Virus record (IMG/VR): IMGVR_UViG_3300029288_000063
Location: 128,001-192,000 of that record
DNA length: 64,000 nt
DNA from: a virus
Taxonomy: Duplodnaviria > Caudoviricetes
Reading direction: 5' to 3' (one strand)
Shown here: positions 1,088 through 48,481 of the stretch, one piece after another
Position numbering within the stretch: the first letter of the stretch is position 1
How the letters are laid out: each line of letters opens with the position of its first letter
The notes under the pieces: model-generated
Database searches by the model: none
The model's input: only the letters and a program-made list of their open reading frames with translations
What the model was told of the DNA's origin: nothing
Made by a program: the position numbers and the translations under genes

Positions 1088-1142
1088 CGGCGAGTGGCGG
1101 AATAGGAAGATGTAAGGGACTTAAAATCCTATCTCTCCGCCA
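1088..1142 (+). pseudogene. chimeric tRNA remnant (5' half tRNA-Leu(TAA), 3' end resembling tRNA-Pro)
   Basis: GGCGAGTGGCGGAATAGG..AAGGGACTTAAAATCC matches Leu(TAA); no variable or T arm; tail AATCCTATCTCTCCGCCAAATT resembles the Pro tail AATCCTGTCTCTCCGACCAAATT. Confidence 0.7.
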
Positions 1143-1237: not shown

Positions 1238-2080
1238 GTGATGTCCGTGCGCTGGTTGCTTGAAAAAGACGTGTTTTCTGAAGACTTGGAGCCGCTGAAA
1301 CAAGAGATTGTTCGTCAGGGGCACTCGTTCACAGAGATGGGGTACATCCCGTTTGGTGGCGGCGAATATGAGGACATTGTAGGCAAAGATTGTACCCTGT
1401 TTTATGGGTCGTTGAATCTCGCGTTGACTCTGTCGCGGCTGCCGTGCCCGCCGGTTATCTTTTGTGACCGGCCGAACTACGAATGCACGAAGTATTACGC
1501 CTATTTTGGCGAGTACCTGTTGAATCAGAAATATGTCATGCTGCCATTCTCCGAGTTGCGTCGTCGAAAGGATTGGTTGTTCGACAAGATTGGTGAGAAT
1601 GGGAGTATGTTTGTTCGCCCGAGTTCAGGGGCGAAAATCTTTACCGGCATGGTGATTCAAAACGACTCTTTTGAGCACGACTACAAGTTGCTTGGATTCT
1701 ATGATGTCGCGCCGCACGCTATGGTCGTTGTTGGTCAGCCTCATAATATCGTTCGTGAGTGGCGTTTGGTTATCGCGGATGACGAGGTTGTTGCCGGAAG
1801 CAAGTATCACGATGGAACCCTGAGCTTGATGTATGAGGGGTTTCCTGAGTCTGTTGGAGAGTTGGCGAATCGTATCTTGTCCGAAACGTCGTATCGTCCT
1901 GACCCCGTGTGGACTATGGATTTTTGCGAAACGAAAGATGGCAGGGTTCATCTCTTAGAAATCGGCGGGTTTAGCTGTGCCGGTTTGTACTTATGCGAGA
2001 TGGCTCCTATTGTCTCAAACGTCTCACGAATCGCAGAAAGCGTGTTTAACGGTGAATATGATGGGCGCGTGGCGGAATAG
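1238..2080 (+). CDS. ATP-grasp protein (DUF4343/R2K-like)
   Basis: FVRP..K.FTG, EWRLVI, WTMDFCE, LLEIGGFSCAGLY motifs. Confidence 0.8.
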   Translation: MMSVRWLLEKDVFSEDLEPLKQEIVRQGHSFTEMGYIPFGGGEYEDIVGKDCTLFYGSLNLALTLSRLPCPPVIFCDRPNYECTKYYAYFGEYLLNQKYVMLPFSELRRRKDWLFDKIGENGSMFVRPSSGAKIFTGMVIQNDSFEHDYKLLGFYDVAPHAMVVVGQPHNIVREWRLVIADDEVVAGSKYHDGTLSLMYEGFPESVGELANRILSETSYRPDPVWTMDFCETKDGRVHLLEIGGFSCAGLYLCEMAPIVSNVSRIAESVFNGEYDGRVAE

Positions 2081-2149
2081 GCAGACGTAAGGGACTTAAA
2101 ATCACTTATCCATAGTGTCGTGTGGGTTCGAGTCCCACCGCGCCTAACA
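2063..2149 (+). tRNA. tRNA-Leu(TAA), possibly degenerate
   Basis: Type II cloverleaf; G.A mismatch in the anticodon stem; ends ACA instead of CCA. Confidence 0.75.
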
Positions 2150-2164
2150 ACTAGGAGTGTGTTT

Positions 2165-2509
2165 ATGTCTGTTGACGGATGTTCGTGTGGTGGCGAGTGC
2201 GGGTGCAAGGGGGAAGAAAATATCCGTCGTGCCAAGCCCGGTGAGCTTGTGCGTTGTCGGTGGTGCGAAGAACTGCCGTTGATTATTTGGGATAAGGATT
2301 ACAACAATCTGAAGATTTGTTGTGATGGCGGCAACGGTGCAAAAGAGTGTTCGGCGTATCCGTCCACATCAAATGGAGGGTTTGGGCCGTCAACGGGACA
2401 TATTGTCAGTAGGCAATGGTCTGTCCTCAATTCGGAGTTGTCGCCACAAGACGCAAGGGATAGTGAAAAGCTCCACGAAGAGGTAAGTAGGAAACTTGAA
2501 GAAAAATAG
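2165..2509 (+). CDS. Cys-rich hypothetical protein
   Basis: AGGAG RBS; CRWC and further Cys motifs. Confidence 0.6.
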   Translation: MSVDGCSCGGECGCKGEENIRRAKPGELVRCRWCEELPLIIWDKDYNNLKICCDGGNGAKECSAYPSTSNGGFGPSTGHIVSRQWSVLNSELSPQDARDSEKLHEEVSRKLEEK

Positions 2510-2512
2510 CCA

Positions 2513-2532
2513 TTTTTTCTTCTGTAAACGAT
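2513..2532 (+). promoter_or_regulatory. candidate phage promoter TTTT-N12-CGAT
   Basis: Motif recurs with fixed spacing in 7-8 intergenic regions. Confidence 0.55.
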
Positions 2533-2556
2533 GTCGGTTCAAAGGAGAAAAACAAA

Positions 2557-2880
2557 ATGGCTCATAAGTTATTCACAAACGAAGTTAGAACCCGCGTGGG
2601 CAATTCAAAAAACTGGCGTCTTGCTTGTGAGTTGCGGTTTGAGGGTTCTGGTTCGTGGTGTTTTGATTGCCGTGAGTCTGGTTTCGAGATTGATGTTGCG
2701 TTCTGTGATGATGGTAATGTGTCGGCGTCCGTGTTTGCGCTTGGTGATGACGAGCAGGAGCCGATTTCATGTGTCGAACGGAAGGTATGTACAGAGGCGC
2801 AGCTTGGCACCGTGATTTCTGAAGCCGTGAAAAACGCGGTTAAGAGTCCGATGCTGAAGCATCGTCTCCTTGAGGTTTGA
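2557..2880 (+). CDS. hypothetical protein
   Basis: AAGGAG RBS, ATG. Confidence 0.75.
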   Translation: MAHKLFTNEVRTRVGNSKNWRLACELRFEGSGSWCFDCRESGFEIDVAFCDDGNVSASVFALGDDEQEPISCVERKVCTEAQLGTVISEAVKNAVKSPMLKHRLLEV

Positions 2881-2994
2881 GGTTAGTAACCGAGTACGAT
2901 TAGCCGTCCGAAAGGTGAAGTTCCCTCGGCGAAATTGAGTGAAACAGGTTCGGGTGGCACCCGTTCAATGTCGCGATAAAGTAGCCGAAAACCA
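2874..2994 (+). ncRNA. candidate multi-branched ncRNA ending in ACCA
   Basis: Closing stem GGTTT-GA-GGTTA/TAGCC-GA-AAACC; inner stems CCGAG/CTCGG, CC-GAAA-GG, TTGA/TCAA, CGGGT/ACCCG. Confidence 0.45.
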
Positions 2995-3006
2995 TTTTTG
3001 ACATAT

Positions 3007-3081
3007 TGCGGGGTGGAGCAGTGGCAGCTCGTCAGCCTCATAAGCTGAAGGTCGAGGGTTCGAATCCCTCCTCCGCTACCA
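3007..3081 (+). tRNA. initiator-type tRNA-Met(CAT)
   Basis: 1:72 mismatch, A11:U24, anticodon CAT, CCA. Confidence 0.92.
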
Positions 3082-3086
3082 ATTTT

Positions 3087-3190
3087 TCTCGTGCGTCGGC
3101 ACAGTGGACCCCACAAAGCAGTTCCCTGTGTCTAGTGTATGGTTGCATGTGGGTGTAGCCAAGATGGGTCACAGTCCCGTCGGCACGAGA
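3087..3190 (+). ncRNA. candidate structured RNA (long closing stem plus 3-way junction)
   Basis: TCTCGTGC/GCACGAGA, GACCC/GGGTC, CACA/TGTG, TGGTTGCAT/GTGTAGCCA; followed by a T-run. Confidence 0.45.
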
Positions 3191-3257
3191 GTTTTTTTCT
3201 ATGAGTGTGGTATGACCTTTTTTTGATTTGTGCCATAGGAAGAGGAGGTATCTTCCT

Positions 3258-4283
3258 ATGGTGCAAAAGGTTGTATGTCGTATTGAAGATTTGTCTGAGA
3301 AGGTCGGTTGGTATATTAGCCGTCCTGTTTTGGATTTTGAAACTTCAAGGTTGTTAATTGCCGTCAACAAGCAAGTTACGCTTGATATGGCGGAGGCTCT
3401 TGCACGACGTGGTGTTGATGTTGTTCAGGTGACTCCAGAGCCGATAGATGTTGAAAACATCGAGCCGGGAAAAGATGGCTCGATGATGGCGAAAAAGTCC
3501 AAAAAGAAGTTGATGGATTCTTTGGCTGAAATAACGATGTCTGTTCGTGGTAGACGGAAGACGGTAAACATGAAGAAATCGTTGTCGAACTTTGTTCTTG
3601 GCAACGTAGAACGAGCAATCATAGGTGTAATAGAGTCAATAAGTAACAATCCAACGTCGTGTGTGTATTTGAGTATGATTGAGGATGAAGATCCGTATTT
3701 GATTCATCATGGTGCAAACACAACGTATCTTGCGTTGTGCCTGATAAACAAGTCGCCTTATGTGAGGATGTTATTTCGAGACCCGGAAAAGGGTTTGCCA
3801 AAATTCAATGCGCCGGGTATGTCGTGTGACTATTCGGATTACGTTCCGCTTGGTATGGCGGCGATGCTGCATGACATTGGCAAAGTTTTCATGCTGGGTA
3901 CGGTGAAGGAAAACAAGAGGTTGACGGATGCAGACCAAGAGTCTTGGGAAACAATCCGTAAACACCCGAAGCTTGGCCACGATGTTTTGTTTGGGAAAAA
4001 GATAGACTCTCATGGGTTGTTGGGTATAAAATATCACCATGAGAACTTTGATGGGTCTGGTTATCCCTTTGGGATAAAGGGGTATAAGATTCATCTATAT
4101 GCGCGGATTTTGCGGGTCGTGGATAGTTTCGACGCGGCGACCTCAAAGCGTCCGGGCAGGGAACAGAAGTCTCCGGAAGAGGTGTGCGTCGAGATGTTGA
4201 AATTAGCGCGGACGCATTATGACCCGGAGATTTGTGCGCACTTTGTCGCGATGATTTTAGGTAAGGAAATTCCGGGGTCGTAG
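3258..4283 (+). CDS. HD-GYP domain cyclic dinucleotide phosphodiesterase
   Basis: LHDIGK, HHENFDGSGYP, VVDSFDA..SKRP; GAGGAGG RBS. Confidence 0.92.
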   Translation: MVQKVVCRIEDLSEKVGWYISRPVLDFETSRLLIAVNKQVTLDMAEALARRGVDVVQVTPEPIDVENIEPGKDGSMMAKKSKKKLMDSLAEITMSVRGRRKTVNMKKSLSNFVLGNVERAIIGVIESISNNPTSCVYLSMIEDEDPYLIHHGANTTYLALCLINKSPYVRMLFRDPEKGLPKFNAPGMSCDYSDYVPLGMAAMLHDIGKVFMLGTVKENKRLTDADQESWETIRKHPKLGHDVLFGKKIDSHGLLGIKYHHENFDGSGYPFGIKGYKIHLYARILRVVDSFDAATSKRPGREQKSPEEVCVEMLKLARTHYDPEICAHFVAMILGKEIPGS

Positions 4284-4349
4284 CTCAACTGGAAGAGCGT
4301 CTGCTTTGCAAGCAGAAGGTCAGGGGTTCGAATCCCCTCGGCTCCACCA
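4274..4349 (+). tRNA. tRNA-Ala(TGC)
   Basis: Cloverleaf, anticodon TGC, G3:U70, CCA. Confidence 0.97.
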
Positions 4350-4395
4350 AATTCAAAGTTGTTTGGTTTGTTCTTTCGGTTATTTTTTGTGATAT

Positions 4396-4481
4396 GGGTA
4401 AATGGCGAAATGGCAGACGCGCAAGGTTTAGGACCTTGTAGTCGAAAGACTGTGAGGGTTCAAGTCCCTCTTTGCCCACCA
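4396..4481 (+). tRNA. tRNA-Leu(TAG)
   Basis: CAAGG-TT-TAG-GA-CCTTG, long variable arm, CCA. Confidence 0.96.
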
Positions 4482-4498
4482 CAACAAAGGATACACAT

Positions 4499-4684
4499 AT
4501 GAACGTTTTCTGTAATGAATGTAAGTATTTGACAGATGATCTTCGTTGTGATTCGCCGTGCAACCTCCAAATAAAACTTTTTGGATTGGTTCTTTATGGA
4601 GGAGTTAAACCGTCGGTGCAAAATATGTATAATGACTGTGTGTTGTTTGAACGTGGAAAGGTTCCCCAAAAGGAATCTCGTTAA
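4499..4684 (+). CDS. small Cys-containing hypothetical protein
   Basis: AAGGA RBS; CNECKY motif. Confidence 0.5.
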   Translation: MNVFCNECKYLTDDLRCDSPCNLQIKLFGLVLYGGVKPSVQNMYNDCVLFERGKVPQKESR

Positions 4685-4696
4685 AATCTTCGAATA

Positions 4697-4782
4697 GGTC
4701 AAGTGGCGGAACGGCATACGCGGCAGACTCAAAATCTGCTGGTCGCAAGATCGTGAGGGTTCAAGTCCCTCCTTGACCACCA
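4697..4782 (+). tRNA. tRNA-Leu(CAA)
   Basis: GCAGA-CT-CAA-AA-TCTGC, CCA. Confidence 0.96.
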
Positions 4783-4793
4783 TTTTTCATCTT

Positions 4794-4878
4794 GGGCGAG
4801 TGGCGGAATCGGCAGACGCACGGGATTTAAAATCCCGTATCTTAAGATGTGCGGGTTCAAGTCCCGCCTCGCCCACCA
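4794..4878 (+). tRNA. tRNA-Leu(TAA), intact copy
   Basis: CGGGA-TT-TAA-AA-TCCCG, CCA. Confidence 0.96.
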
Positions 4879-4934
4879 ATAAGATATGCTTTTTTTATAT
4901 CCCTCCTAAATGTGTCGTGTGGAGGGGAAATGCC

Positions 4935-5396
4935 ATGTGTAGGTGTAATAGGTTAAAAGATATAATAAATGCTGAGAAAAGTGTTATTTTGCATCACATA
5001 GATAGACATAAATGGTTTAACAGTATTGTCGATCAGAATATCGCCATTGCAGATTTTGCATCAAAGTATGCGTGGCTTATGCGAGAAGTTTTTTGTGGGA
5101 TGATATGTGCTGAACATGAATCATGCGAGGCTGCGAAAAACATTCGTGTTTGTTTTTCCGAAGAAATCTGTCGTGAAGATTTGGAAAGTTTTGTTAAACG
5201 TTATTGCGCGAAAGAATCACTTGATGTCGCTGAAATATGCTTCCGTTTAGTAAGGCGTCACATAAATATTCACAAATGGATTCATGGAATATCTTGTTAT
5301 GATGAGGCTGTTTTTGATTTTATAGGAAGATTTGGGTGGCTGGTTTCTGATTTGTTGTGTTTGTCCAAAACTGCTTGTGATAGGTGTATTGATTGA
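4935..5396 (+). CDS. hypothetical protein with a tandem-duplicated HKW domain
   Basis: Two copies of HI..HKW...I.....A..DF...[YF].WL; GGAGG RBS. Confidence 0.7.
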   Translation: MCRCNRLKDIINAEKSVILHHIDRHKWFNSIVDQNIAIADFASKYAWLMREVFCGMICAEHESCEAAKNIRVCFSEEICREDLESFVKRYCAKESLDVAEICFRLVRRHINIHKWIHGISCYDEAVFDFIGRFGWLVSDLLCLSKTACDRCID

Positions 5397-6001
5397 ACAA
5401 GTTTTGTTTTTTCATTTTGTCATTTTTCATGCTTGTTTCGGGTTGTTCCTCTATTGGGACAACTGCCGTCAAATATTCTGTTGAAGGTCTTGGTTATATT
5501 TCCGCTGACAGGTATAAGCGGTCGGATGACGTTGTGTTAGTTAAGGGTTTTCCGGGGAAACCGAACAGGTTGTATGTTCGACGCGGGATGAATCCATTAT
5601 GGGGTCCGTCTGAACTTTTAGGCGATTCCGGGATAGGGTGGTGGGATTATGTTGAGAAAAATCGTCGCGTGCAGATTTACAGCAGCGTATCGGTTGCTAT
5701 GTTTGGAAAATATGAGTTCCTTTTGTCGCCTGATGCGTACAAGTGTTGGGTTAAAGAACGAGAACACATGAATGCAAAGTACGCATCCGAGGTTGACCTT
5801 GGTATGTATCAGCACCTTTTGCAAACTCAGGCTCAATTTGAAGAGTCGACATCGGAATTAAAGCAAGAAAAGAGAATGTTTAAAATACGTCAAAAACCTT
5901 ATATAGAGGCGGATATCAAAAAAGGGTCTCATGACGAGTTGTCTTTTGGTGAGTTAGTTGGTATTGGTTTTATTCATAAAAAGGAGATTGGGGGCGAATA
6001 G
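5393..6001 (+). CDS. putative lipoprotein
   Basis: Signal peptide with lipobox VSG-C; start overlaps the upstream stop. Confidence 0.7.
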   Translation: MNKFCFFILSFFMLVSGCSSIGTTAVKYSVEGLGYISADRYKRSDDVVLVKGFPGKPNRLYVRRGMNPLWGPSELLGDSGIGWWDYVEKNRRVQIYSSVSVAMFGKYEFLLSPDAYKCWVKEREHMNAKYASEVDLGMYQHLLQTQAQFEESTSELKQEKRMFKIRQKPYIEADIKKGSHDELSFGELVGIGFIHKKEIGGE

Positions 6002-6334
6002 GTATCGACTGAATAAGGACGTTATAGATTGCACGCCGTGGTTGGTCGGTTGGCCACGAAAAAAGCCGACTAAAGCAATAACTGCGAACGACAACGTTCG
6101 TCTCGCTGCTTAGGCGCAGCGACCGTCTGCCGGTGAGGACGCCTTAGTAACCGGACAGAAGGCCGATACGGAGGCTGACGGCGTCAAAGAACGCTGACGT
6201 TGCCCAAAGGGCAGTGACTTGGGGGAAAGTCTCCAGAAGCCCTGCTGGCGGGGCTATAAGCTGTCAGACAAGCGTGTAGACGTTTATAACTGAAATATTA
6301 CAGGACGCGGGTTCGATTCCCGCCGCCTCCACCA
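5990..6334 (+). ncRNA. ssrA: tmRNA; tag (A)ANDNVRLAA at 6084-6113
   Basis: GGGGGCG/CGCCTCC-ACCA acceptor with G3:U; TCGAC 5' motif; T-arm; resume context ATAACT-GCG; tag ends LAA-stop. Confidence 0.96.
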
Positions 6335-7419: not shown

Positions 7420-8586
7420 ATGGCTTCGAGTATTGTTGTGCCTATTGTGCGGATTGAAAAAGTCCGTTCCCACCCAAACGCTGACAAGTTGGAATTGTGC
7501 AATGTTCTTGGGTTTCAAATGTGTATTCCCAAGGGCAAACACAAGTCTGGCGACATCTGTGTGTATGTTCCTGCCGATTCTTTGGTTCCGAACGATTGGG
7601 CTGAAAAGTGGGGAGTCCTCCCTTATTTGAAAGGTCAGGAAAAGAACCGTGTCGGAAGAGTCCGGCTACGTGGTGAGCCGTCGTTTGGATTGATTGTTGA
7701 TATGTCGTGGCTGCCGGGAAGCGATAAGCCATACAACGTTGGGGACAATGTTGCAGACTGCTTCGGCATAAAGAAATACGAGCATCCGGTAAAGGCCGTT
7801 TCGTCGGATGCCGCAGCGTATGACTCTGACATTGACCCGTATGTCTCTCGTTATACCGACATTGAGAATGGACGTGTTTTCACCGAGGTATTCCGCGAAG
7901 GCGAAGAGGTTGTCGCCACAGAAAAGATTCACGGGACGAACTGTAAGGTTGGGTTCGTTCGTGTTGGCGATGAGTGGATTCCTGTTGCGGGTTCTATGGG
8001 TGTCCGGCGTAAGCGTCCTATGAGGCCGACATGGACTCCACAGTCATGGCTTGAGAGACTCTACGTGCGGCTTTTTGGCATGAAATACGTCGAGGCTGAC
8101 TTTGACGACCGCGAAATTCGTGGGAGCACATATTGGTCGCCATTTGCGCTTCCGTCTGTGCGCGTCCTGTTGATGCGTTTGTGTGATTGTGCCGAAAGGT
8201 CTGTTTTGCTGTATGGTGAGGTGTTTGGCCCGTGTGTTCAAAACCTCCATTATGGTGTCACGGCAGTTGAAGGTTTTCGCTTTCGTGCGTTTGATATTTG
8301 TATAGACGGGAAATTCCTCAACTGGGTCGAGTTCTCCGACTTGTGTGGGGAGGTTGGAGTTCCTGTTGTGCCTGTGGTCTATCGTGGCGCGTTTAGTTTT
8401 GAAGACATAAAGAAGGCTGCCGATGGACGTTCGACCTTGCCGGGGGCAGACAACATTCGAGAGGGAGTTGTCGTGAAGCCGGTCGTTGAAAGGGTCGACT
8501 CGAAGGTTGGTCGTGCGGTGTTGAAGTTTATCGGGACGGAATATGAGTTGTCCAAAAAGGACGAAGATGACTGTAAGGACGTTTGA
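7420..8586 (+). CDS. RNA ligase, Rnl2/DRB0094-like
   Basis: N-terminal HPNADKL module; motifs EKIHGTN, YGEVFG, FRAFDI, EGVVVKP, LK. Confidence 0.92.
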   Translation: MASSIVVPIVRIEKVRSHPNADKLELCNVLGFQMCIPKGKHKSGDICVYVPADSLVPNDWAEKWGVLPYLKGQEKNRVGRVRLRGEPSFGLIVDMSWLPGSDKPYNVGDNVADCFGIKKYEHPVKAVSSDAAAYDSDIDPYVSRYTDIENGRVFTEVFREGEEVVATEKIHGTNCKVGFVRVGDEWIPVAGSMGVRRKRPMRPTWTPQSWLERLYVRLFGMKYVEADFDDREIRGSTYWSPFALPSVRVLLMRLCDCAERSVLLYGEVFGPCVQNLHYGVTAVEGFRFRAFDICIDGKFLNWVEFSDLCGEVGVPVVPVVYRGAFSFEDIKKAADGRSTLPGADNIREGVVVKPVVERVDSKVGRAVLKFIGTEYELSKKDEDDCKDV

Positions 8587-10585: not shown

Positions 10586-11050
10586 GTGCCTAACTTCGAG
10601 TGGATAAGTCCAGAAGACAGAAATGCTGAGGAGTTAATTGGCGAGCTGCAATACAAAGAATGCTTTGTGGGGCAGACCGACAGTTATCCGGGGAGAAGCA
10701 GGGTGCTGTTTCAAAACCTAACGTTATATGCCGGTGACAACAAGACCTATGTGGTCTATGTGAAAGACCGTGATGGAAATCCTGTTTTGGTTTCCGGCGC
10801 GGTTGCGGTGTTGACGTGGCGTCGTGCCAAGGGCGAGGCGTTGGTTTTTCAGAAGAGTACGGCTGTTGCCGGTGAAGGCGAAATTGGTGCGGCGAACAAA
10901 GGCGAGGTGTTTTTCTATTTGGTTTCTGCGGACACATCCGCAATCGAAAAAGATAGGCAGTATGTTTGGGATATTGCCGTGACGCTTTCCTCCGGCAAAC
11001 GGTATACTGTTCTTGAAGGTGTAACAACCCTGCGTAGCACTGTAGCCTGA
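10586..11050 (+). CDS. BppU-N-like Ig-fold virion/baseplate-type protein
   Basis: GD..Y.V.V.D.DG.P..SG ... YVWDI.VT...G..YT.LEG pattern. Confidence 0.6.
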   Translation: MPNFEWISPEDRNAEELIGELQYKECFVGQTDSYPGRSRVLFQNLTLYAGDNKTYVVYVKDRDGNPVLVSGAVAVLTWRRAKGEALVFQKSTAVAGEGEIGAANKGEVFFYLVSADTSAIEKDRQYVWDIAVTLSSGKRYTVLEGVTTLRSTVA

Positions 11051-48076: not shown

Positions 48077-48481
48077 ATGATGGAAATACATAACCGTCGT
48101 GAGCTTGCCGATAAGGTGTTGGCGTGTCTGCTTGATGCTTTGAAAAACATTAACGCCGACAAGGACGCGAGTGCTTCTGTTGGCTCGTATCAGAATGGTC
48201 GTGAGCAGGGTCACTCCCTGTTTGTCACCAACTATAGTGGGACAAAGTTCAAGTCTTTGTGGGTCGGTTTTGCGGAGCATCGTATTTCGGACGACATTGT
48301 TGTGTATTTCGACGACAACGACCCGATGCAGTCCATTACCAATTCCATGTATGATAACTCATACCACTTCGGTTGCGATGAGGTTGATGGTGCTGTGAAT
48401 TTTATCGTATCCATTGTTGACCGTGTTGTCGTGCAGGGTGGCAAGAAAAAGACTCACAAGAAGAAAGACAACAACGCATGA
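48077..48481 (+). CDS. hypothetical protein
   Basis: AGGAGG RBS. Confidence 0.75.
   Translation: MMEIHNRRELADKVLACLLDALKNINADKDASASVGSYQNGREQGHSLFVTNYSGTKFKSLWVGFAEHRISDDIVVYFDDNDPMQSITNSMYDNSYHFGCDEVDGAVNFIVSIVDRVVVQGGKKKTHKKKDNNA

Follow-up and report, generated by a model that had tools for sequence, protein, structure and literature searches.

Why do three protein genes of a large phage end inside the RNA genes that follow them? The question arises from an initial annotation of a 64,000-nucleotide (nt) stretch of phage DNA, here called the window, which comprises bases 128001-192000 of the 253,102-bp IMG/VR virus record IMGVR_UViG_3300029288_000063 (CheckV completeness estimate 75%). In this window, an ATP-grasp gene, an HD-GYP phosphodiesterase gene and a lipoprotein-like gene appeared to take their stop codons from within a tRNA-Leu, a tRNA-Ala and a transfer-messenger RNA (tmRNA) gene, respectively. 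RNase P cuts tRNAs and tmRNA at position +1, and trans-translation handles messages that have no stop codon. The initial annotation proposed that maturation of each RNA strips the upstream message of its stop, and that the phage tmRNA then tags the product for degradation, as a means of shutting off these proteins. Our analysis favours another answer, to which we assign a probability of about 0.68: the overlaps reflect protein genes packed without any spacer into tRNA operons, and trans-translation is at most a by-product.

Three protein genes end inside tRNA or tmRNA genes

The three junctions are formed by the following features, with positions given in the window.

1238-2080, + strand: R2K-clade ATP-grasp gene, from the open reading frame (ORF) list and Pfam PF18299/PF14243; likely start ATG 1241, 279 amino acids (aa)
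2063-2146, + strand: tRNA-Leu(UAA) gene; ARAGORN 2062-2148, Rfam 47 bits at 2063-2146, acceptor pairing read by hand
3228-4283, + strand: HD-GYP (HD_5) phosphodiesterase gene, from Pfam HD_5/HD; likely start ATG 3258 behind AGGAGG, 341 aa
4274-4349, + strand: tRNA-Ala(UGC) gene, called by ARAGORN and Rfam; +1 is G4274, G3:U70 present
5393-6001, + strand: lipoprotein-like gene, whose TTG start overlaps the preceding stop as TTGA; a signal peptide and an LVSGC lipobox are seen when it is read from TTG 5393
5990-6334, + strand: tmRNA gene, called by ARAGORN; Rfam RF00023 141 bits, model positions 1-374 of 374

The ATP-grasp ORF ends in GGG CGC GTG GCG GAA TAG, and its final five codons (GRVAE) and the TAG (2078-2080, nt 16-18 of the tRNA) lie within tRNA-Leu, a class II tRNA with a G1-U72 pair and no encoded CCA, whose G1 was placed at 2063 by checking the acceptor stem by hand. 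The tail of the HD-GYP ORF is CCG GGG TCG TAG; here the last two codons (GS) are contributed by tRNA-Ala, and the TAG (4281-4283) corresponds to U8-A9-G10 (nt 8-10) of the tRNA. This tRNA heads a run of four tRNAs (Ala, Leu-UAG, Leu-CAA, Leu-UAA) that is followed by a T-run at about 4885. The lipoprotein ORF ends in GGG GGC GAA TAG, with three codons (GGE) and the TAG (5999-6001, nt 10-12) inside the tmRNA gene. The latter encodes a one-piece, full-length tmRNA with G5990 as +1, a G3:U70 pair, tRNA-like ends and the tag (A)ANDNVRLAA; it is 76% identical to the tmRNA of a related phage contig (L002), and the lipoprotein gene together with the preceding ORF constitutes its leader.

ARAGORN, Rfam and reading by hand reproduced the positions at which the initial annotation had placed the three stops. 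All three upstream ORFs have native codon usage (0.30-0.32 bits per codon) and belong to orthologue families, and two of them match Pfam; they are real protein genes. At each junction the t(m)RNA gene is valid, the ORF is real, and the first in-frame stop falls inside the RNA gene. A miscalled RNA gene or ORF was considered as the source of these overlaps and was ruled out for the three cases by the agreement of ARAGORN with Rfam, the hand-checked stems and the reality of the ORFs. The in-RNA stops are the only ones available to the three ORFs, and they lie 10-18 nt downstream of +1, that is, not upstream of the RNase P site. With zero spacer between coding sequence (CDS) and RNA gene, there is no space for a promoter or a terminator at the junctions. 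A scan for promoter and terminator consensus sequences, which may miss phage-specific promoters inside ORFs, revealed no excess of sites.

Further overlaps in the same genome

The genome has a G+C content of 49% and a strong G>C and T>A skew, and nearly all its genes lie on the + strand. Over the whole record ARAGORN called 57 tRNA genes, one with the anticodon CUA, and one tmRNA gene, mostly at genome positions 106-134 kb. One of these 58 calls is a probable false positive (see below), so that about 57 RNA genes were used in the counts. A frame-by-frame scan of every RNA gene called, combined with Pfam and sequence reading, revealed at least three or four overlaps beyond the three described above. 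The ORF of a hybrid histidine kinase (CHASE4-HisKA-HATPase-REC, 710-723 aa) stops at nt 8-10 of tRNA(CUA), a 74-aa ORF stops at nt 8-10 of tRNA-Gly(CCC), and an HNH ORF extends 51 nt into tRNA-Trp. The tRNA(CUA) gene (L013:13632-13706, genome 121632-121706) is of the amber-suppressor type, with the loop UUCUAAA, and a strong terminator follows it directly. A possible fourth case within the window is the following.

574-726, + strand: 50-aa ORF, with its TAG at nt 8-10 of tRNA-Pro(UGG) (717-793)

The coding status of this ORF is uncertain: its coding score is weak (0.15 per codon), and its match to DUF6356 (E = 0.003) is under the cut-off.

The longest intrusion is that of a 181-aa ORF (L013:5986-6531, genome 113986-114531), which has no stop ahead of a tandem pair of tRNA-Gln genes (CUG, UUG). 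It spans both tRNA genes entirely, and its terminal TGA shares bases with the GTG start codon of the following gene (TGGTGA). The 124-aa unique part of this ORF belongs to a family with 604 matches and a typical length of 100-140 aa. In a relative with 82% protein identity (L213:40-585), the same read-through of both tRNA-Gln genes is retained. In a homologue with 63% identity the tRNAs would not fit, as it is only 136 aa long, yet it has a similar ...VTW end. Since this tRNA-less homologue ends in that way, the comparison suggests that the tRNA-Gln pair was inserted at the 3' end of the ORF. Directly after the pair lies a 98-aa ORF (L013:6534-6830, genome 114534-114830), which ends 3 nt before a tRNA-Met gene and has a sub-threshold match to PTH2, a peptidyl-tRNA hydrolase (E = 1e-4, 22.9 bits against a cut-off of 23).

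The overlap rate follows gene packing

Overlaps were found in 6-7 of about 57 RNA genes, or approximately one in nine. Hudson et al. (2014, PMC4131195) surveyed 115,660 t(m)RNA genes of bacteria and counted 250 upstream-CDS overlaps, and the rate in this genome is roughly 50 times the bacterial one. For a comparison with gene packing, the gene-gene baseline was taken from 321 + strand genes predicted by a gene caller based on codon usage. Overlap was seen in 70 of 320 gene-gene junctions, and in 70 of the 156 that were tighter than 30 nt. Among gene-RNA junctions with ORFs of at least 100 codons, six overlap and four abut (gaps of 1, 3, 5 and 18 nt), i.e., 6 of 10 tight junctions, a proportion similar to the gene-gene figure of 70 in 156 (Fisher p = 0.51).

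Similar junctions were present in the other viral and metagenomic loci that were fetched, where tRNA junctions were 7 overlapping versus 20 abutting and tmRNA junctions 11 versus 17. Pooled over these contigs, 18 overlapping and 37 abutting junctions gave p = 0.15 against this genome. The loci retrieved with a tmRNA motif common to the window and L002 were mostly bacterial tmRNAs and served as a baseline only. Unrelated viral or metagenomic contigs with overlaps include L002, L140/L178, L094 and L189; in L002, an ORF at 10628-10930 ends at nt 10 of a tRNA-Lys that starts at 10921. An excess of overlaps is present with respect to bacteria, but it is absent with respect to the packing of this genome's own genes and to other phage tRNA regions. 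Of the explanations on offer, the caveat attached to the initial annotation, that such overlaps can arise through genome compaction, fits these data best.

The in-RNA stops lie early in the RNA genes

In 29 of 58 tRNAs, a stop by nt 12 is available in one of the three frames, in the form of a TAG at nt 8-10. Over all frames, the random expectation is a stop by nt 12 in 21% and by nt 25 in 39%. The observed intrusions were 10, 10, 10, 12, 19, 51 and 174 nt, five of the seven being short (10-19 nt), and the stop is a TAG in six. Intrusions of 12 nt or less account for 4 of 7 cases, against 21% for random frames (p = 0.038). This suggests that the early in-RNA stops are actually used on unprocessed transcripts. 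Such an excess would be expected if termination at these stops matters, but not if processing simply discards the stop.

Orthologues carry their own stops

The three proteins were compared with orthologues at about 95 loci in other phages. At none of them did an RNA gene overlap an orthologue, and the orthologues of all three proteins end with stops of their own. HD-GYP orthologues with 34-55% identity (L001-L003) had no RNA gene downstream. ATP-grasp orthologues, which comprised six loci at 62-75% identity (L004-L009) and 80 more distant IMG/VR loci (27-75% overall), had no overlapping RNA gene; one of these genes (L274) abuts a tRNA-Val, ending in TAA 7 nt before it. For lipoprotein orthologues with 52-57% identity (L010-L012, L214), no tmRNA was found in the available downstream sequence, which for L012 is only 67 nt; these 67 nt resemble a promoter followed by a ribosome-binding site.

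ATP-grasp orthologues at 45-75% identity stop 3-6 residues sooner than the window protein, and two of three lipoprotein orthologues end in ...EKK, five residues earlier. In the alignments, the C-terminal excess of the window proteins consists of just the RNA-encoded residues, namely GS, (D)GRVAE and (EI)GGE. Because these 2-6 residues are absent from the orthologues, the tails lack conservation and the overlaps are specific to this lineage. The initial annotation had named in advance, as an outcome that would speak against a selected control, orthologues that end before the tRNA; the orthologues do end at stops of their own, with no RNA gene overlapping them.

The reach of the database searches differed with the method. 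Single-protein IMG/VR scans with the three proteins returned no relatives, and alignment-based scans returned one locus each for the lipoprotein and the HD-GYP protein and 80 for ATP-grasp, with an overlap in none. Among INPHARED phages only distant HD-domain matches were found. The gene order around the 75%-identical ATP-grasp gene of L004 is not common to the window.

Packing and its alternatives

We propose that the junctions arose in a densely packed jumbo phage in which one strand carries protein genes interspersed with those for tRNAs and tmRNA. A protein gene would have lost its own stop, or an RNA gene would have been inserted at its 3' end, and the frame would then continue to the first in-frame stop. 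Such a stop would be supplied almost free by conserved t(m)RNA sequence: U8-A9-G10, the UAGG of the D-loop, or the UAG at nt 10-12 of tmRNA. The proteins would be translated from the co-transcript before it is processed, for the most part while transcription is under way or shortly afterwards, with termination at the in-RNA TAG and 2-6 extra residues. The RNase P cut at +1 would release the RNA and put an end to the upstream message as a template, as in secG-leuU of Escherichia coli (see below). Trans-translation would rescue any ribosomes left on the cleaved message and tag their products, which would be a by-product and no dedicated switch.

Several points weigh against this reading. That the genes are co-transcribed, that translation comes before processing and how much protein is tagged are all inferred. 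Since the searches turned up no relative near enough to have the three window junctions, the comparison is confined to more distant phages, and the 82%-identity relative that keeps the tRNA-Gln read-through indicates that such layouts can persist. The gene caller behind the baseline of 70 overlaps in 320 gene-gene junctions is crude. In addition, the overlap at tRNA junctions is nominally higher here (5 of 9) than elsewhere (5-7 of 25-27; p = 0.08-0.13). A lineage-specific tendency to overlap tRNAs may underlie this, although the difference from the other contigs is not significant (p = 0.08-0.15).

The initial annotation was correct in its physical premise, which is sound and has been published: cutting at +1 would remove the only stop of the upstream message. 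That such removal was selected as a shut-off switch, with the phage tmRNA tagging the proteins for degradation, finds no support in the orthologues, the tails or the packing rate, and we regard it as unlikely. Such a switch would draw on in-RNA stops that are the only ones available and on a complete phage tmRNA whose tag ends in LAA, but no SmpB gene was found in the 253 kb (an estimated 75% of the genome), and genes that end 1-3 nt before a tRNA would meet nearly the same fate on cleavage, so that an in-RNA stop adds little. The frequency of such junctions, 6-7 per about 57 RNA genes and far above that of bacteria (PMC4131195), speaks for the switch until it is set against general packing, which it equals. 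Two signalling enzymes, the HD-GYP phosphodiesterase and the CHASE4 hybrid kinase, are among the overlapped genes, but no functional theme is common to ATP-grasp, HD-GYP, lipoprotein, HNH and kinase. One overlap is retained in a relative (L213); the orthologues of the three window proteins have their own stops and no overlapping RNA gene, and the enrichment of early stops is unexpected for stops that are meant for removal. Were a programmed switch real, tRNA maturation, ribosome rescue and protein turnover would be linked in a phage, and phage tmRNAs would have a concrete role. A broader version is rather improbable. It holds that the RNA-embedded stops of jumbo phages are purposeful, and that the competition of translating ribosomes with RNase P would set whether accessory proteins (HD-GYP, hybrid kinase, ATP-grasp, lipoprotein) are completed or are tagged by tmRNA and destroyed, and would also set t(m)RNA maturation. 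A phage RNase P-like RNA might help the cutting, and the tmRNA, the PTH2-like hydrolase and an RNA ligase would form one translation-rescue module.

The coupling might also run in the reverse direction, or across the RNA genes, which we consider improbable. Ribosomes in the 5' part of the RNA would keep it unfolded and delay RNase P, so that translation would gate t(m)RNA maturation, and open frames would also couple the next gene. The 181-aa ORF, which spans both tRNA-Gln genes and ends in a TGGTGA that overlaps the start of the PTH2-like gene, fits this idea, and its frame is open both here and in L213, where the sole indel downstream of the tRNAs is of 3 nt; but this is one lineage with one informative indel, for which the chance is about 1 in 3. 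Judging from the size of its footprint, a ribosome that halts at nt 8-19 would occlude the 5' strand of the acceptor stem as well as the D-arm; the overlaps, however, are mostly short. Suppression by the phage tRNA(CUA), which would read the in-RNA TAGs late in infection and yield C-terminally extended or fused proteins, is highly improbable. It would make sense of the presence of TAG in 6 of 7 in-RNA stops in a genome that encodes tRNA(CUA), but TAG is simply the stop that occurs near the start of t(m)RNA genes. If TAG is translated as a sense codon, the ATP-grasp frame crosses tRNA-Leu into the next in-frame ORF and the HD-GYP frame gains 72 codons; the extensions would be tRNA-encoded junk, and this continuation of the frames is most likely a coincidence.

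Relation to known systems

The concept that maturation of a t(m)RNA overlapped by an upstream CDS creates a non-stop mRNA is already published: same-strand CDS/t(m)RNA overlaps were predicted to be sources of such messages (Hudson, Lau and Williams 2014, Front Microbiol 5:421, PMC4131195). As in that class, the CDSs described here enter the downstream tRNA or tmRNA gene, and RNA maturation is expected to turn the upstream message into a stop-less substrate of trans-translation. The bacterial cases are rare, whereas in this phage, which has its own tmRNA, an overlap is seen at about one in nine RNA genes, with accessory phage CDSs in place of smpB. In Carsonella, smpB runs into ssrA, which PMC4131195, in citing Mao et al. 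2009, presents as a feedback situation. Literature searches for phage-specific reports of CDS-tRNA overlap found none.

For E. coli secG-leuU, separation of the mRNA from the tRNA by RNase P is followed by decay of the mRNA within 30 s (Mohanty and Kushner 2008, NAR 36:364, PMC2241853). There too the tRNA directly follows the mRNA in one transcript, a co-transcript of the kind that would be expected here. The secG stop, unlike those in the window, lies 14 nt before leuU; here the stop is inside the RNA gene, so cleavage removes it.

In mitochondria, tRNA punctuation sets the 3' ends of mRNAs through tRNA excision, and a terminal U or UA is polyadenylated to UAA. CDSs abut or overlap tRNAs in both settings, but the cut messages of the phage would end in ...AUU CC, ...GAU and ...AUU. 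With such predicted ends, the addition of A residues cannot rebuild a stop. In four of the 11 tmRNA overlaps from other loci (IMG/VR L025, L026, L031 and L131, with ORFs of 118-420 codons), the G of the terminal TAG is the +1 of the tmRNA, and an RNase P cut would leave an incomplete UA stop, in a mitochondria-like manner.

Phages with recoded stop codons (of the genetic code 15 type) and suppressor tRNAs were reportedly described by Borges et al. in 2022. The phage studied here resembles them as a large phage encoding tRNA(CUA), and differs from them by showing no sign of in-frame TAG use. Recoding of TAG was considered and rejected: coding-flanked in-frame TAG occurred 5 times, against 10 for TAA and 10 for TGA, TAG ends 23% of the genes, and the gain in ORFs with TAG as sense equals that with TAA as sense.

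The junctions have some practical consequences. In the tRNA regions of phages, such genes will be cut short or overlooked by gene-finding programs that allow no overlap of a CDS with a tRNA. The overlap of about one in nine RNA genes, a far higher proportion than in bacteria, indicates that phage tRNA arrays tolerate overlaps well, and the junctions are natural, ready-made substrates for measuring how often RNase P cutting yields non-stop messages.

Neighbouring features

The ARAGORN call excluded from the counts is a 'tRNA-Val(CAC)' of 89 nt at window positions 48180-48268. It lies wholly within a strongly coding 134-aa ORF, had no Rfam match at the gathering threshold, and is a probable false positive. 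The 5' half of a further tRNA-Leu(UAA) gene was observed at window positions 1088-1140, with the acceptor 5' strand, the D-arm and an anticodon arm with CUUAAAA, and without the variable arm and the T-arm. It starts 1 nt past the TAG of the ORF at 815-1087 and probably represents a degenerate second copy of the tRNA-Leu gene that begins at 2063. Between tRNA-Leu(GAG) and tRNA-Glu, a match of ~194 nt to bacterial RNase P RNA (RF00010) was detected (L212, genome 124609-124802, + strand); it is weak (26 bits, E = 2e-7) and far under the gathering score of 100.

Among the 82 IMG/VR loci fetched, 80 of which carry R2K ATP-grasp genes (L216-L295), tRNA or tmRNA genes lay within 3 kb in 14, and all 14 were ATP-grasp loci. 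In four loci (L279, L285, L287 and L288), a tRNA(CUA) gene lies ~3 kb downstream of the ATP-grasp gene. The R2K ATP-grasp family seems to travel with the tRNA regions of large phages. In the L002 contig, a TROVE/Ro60 gene is located immediately upstream of the HD-GYP orthologue (L002:6818-9059). An RNA ligase gene (PF09414 and a PHA02142 OB-fold domain; window 7420-8586) lies ~1.1 kb downstream of the tmRNA, and in L004 an RtcB ligase gene (L004:4778-6145) lies 0.5 kb upstream of the 75%-identical ATP-grasp gene. Together, these two ligase genes point to a tRNA-repair context.

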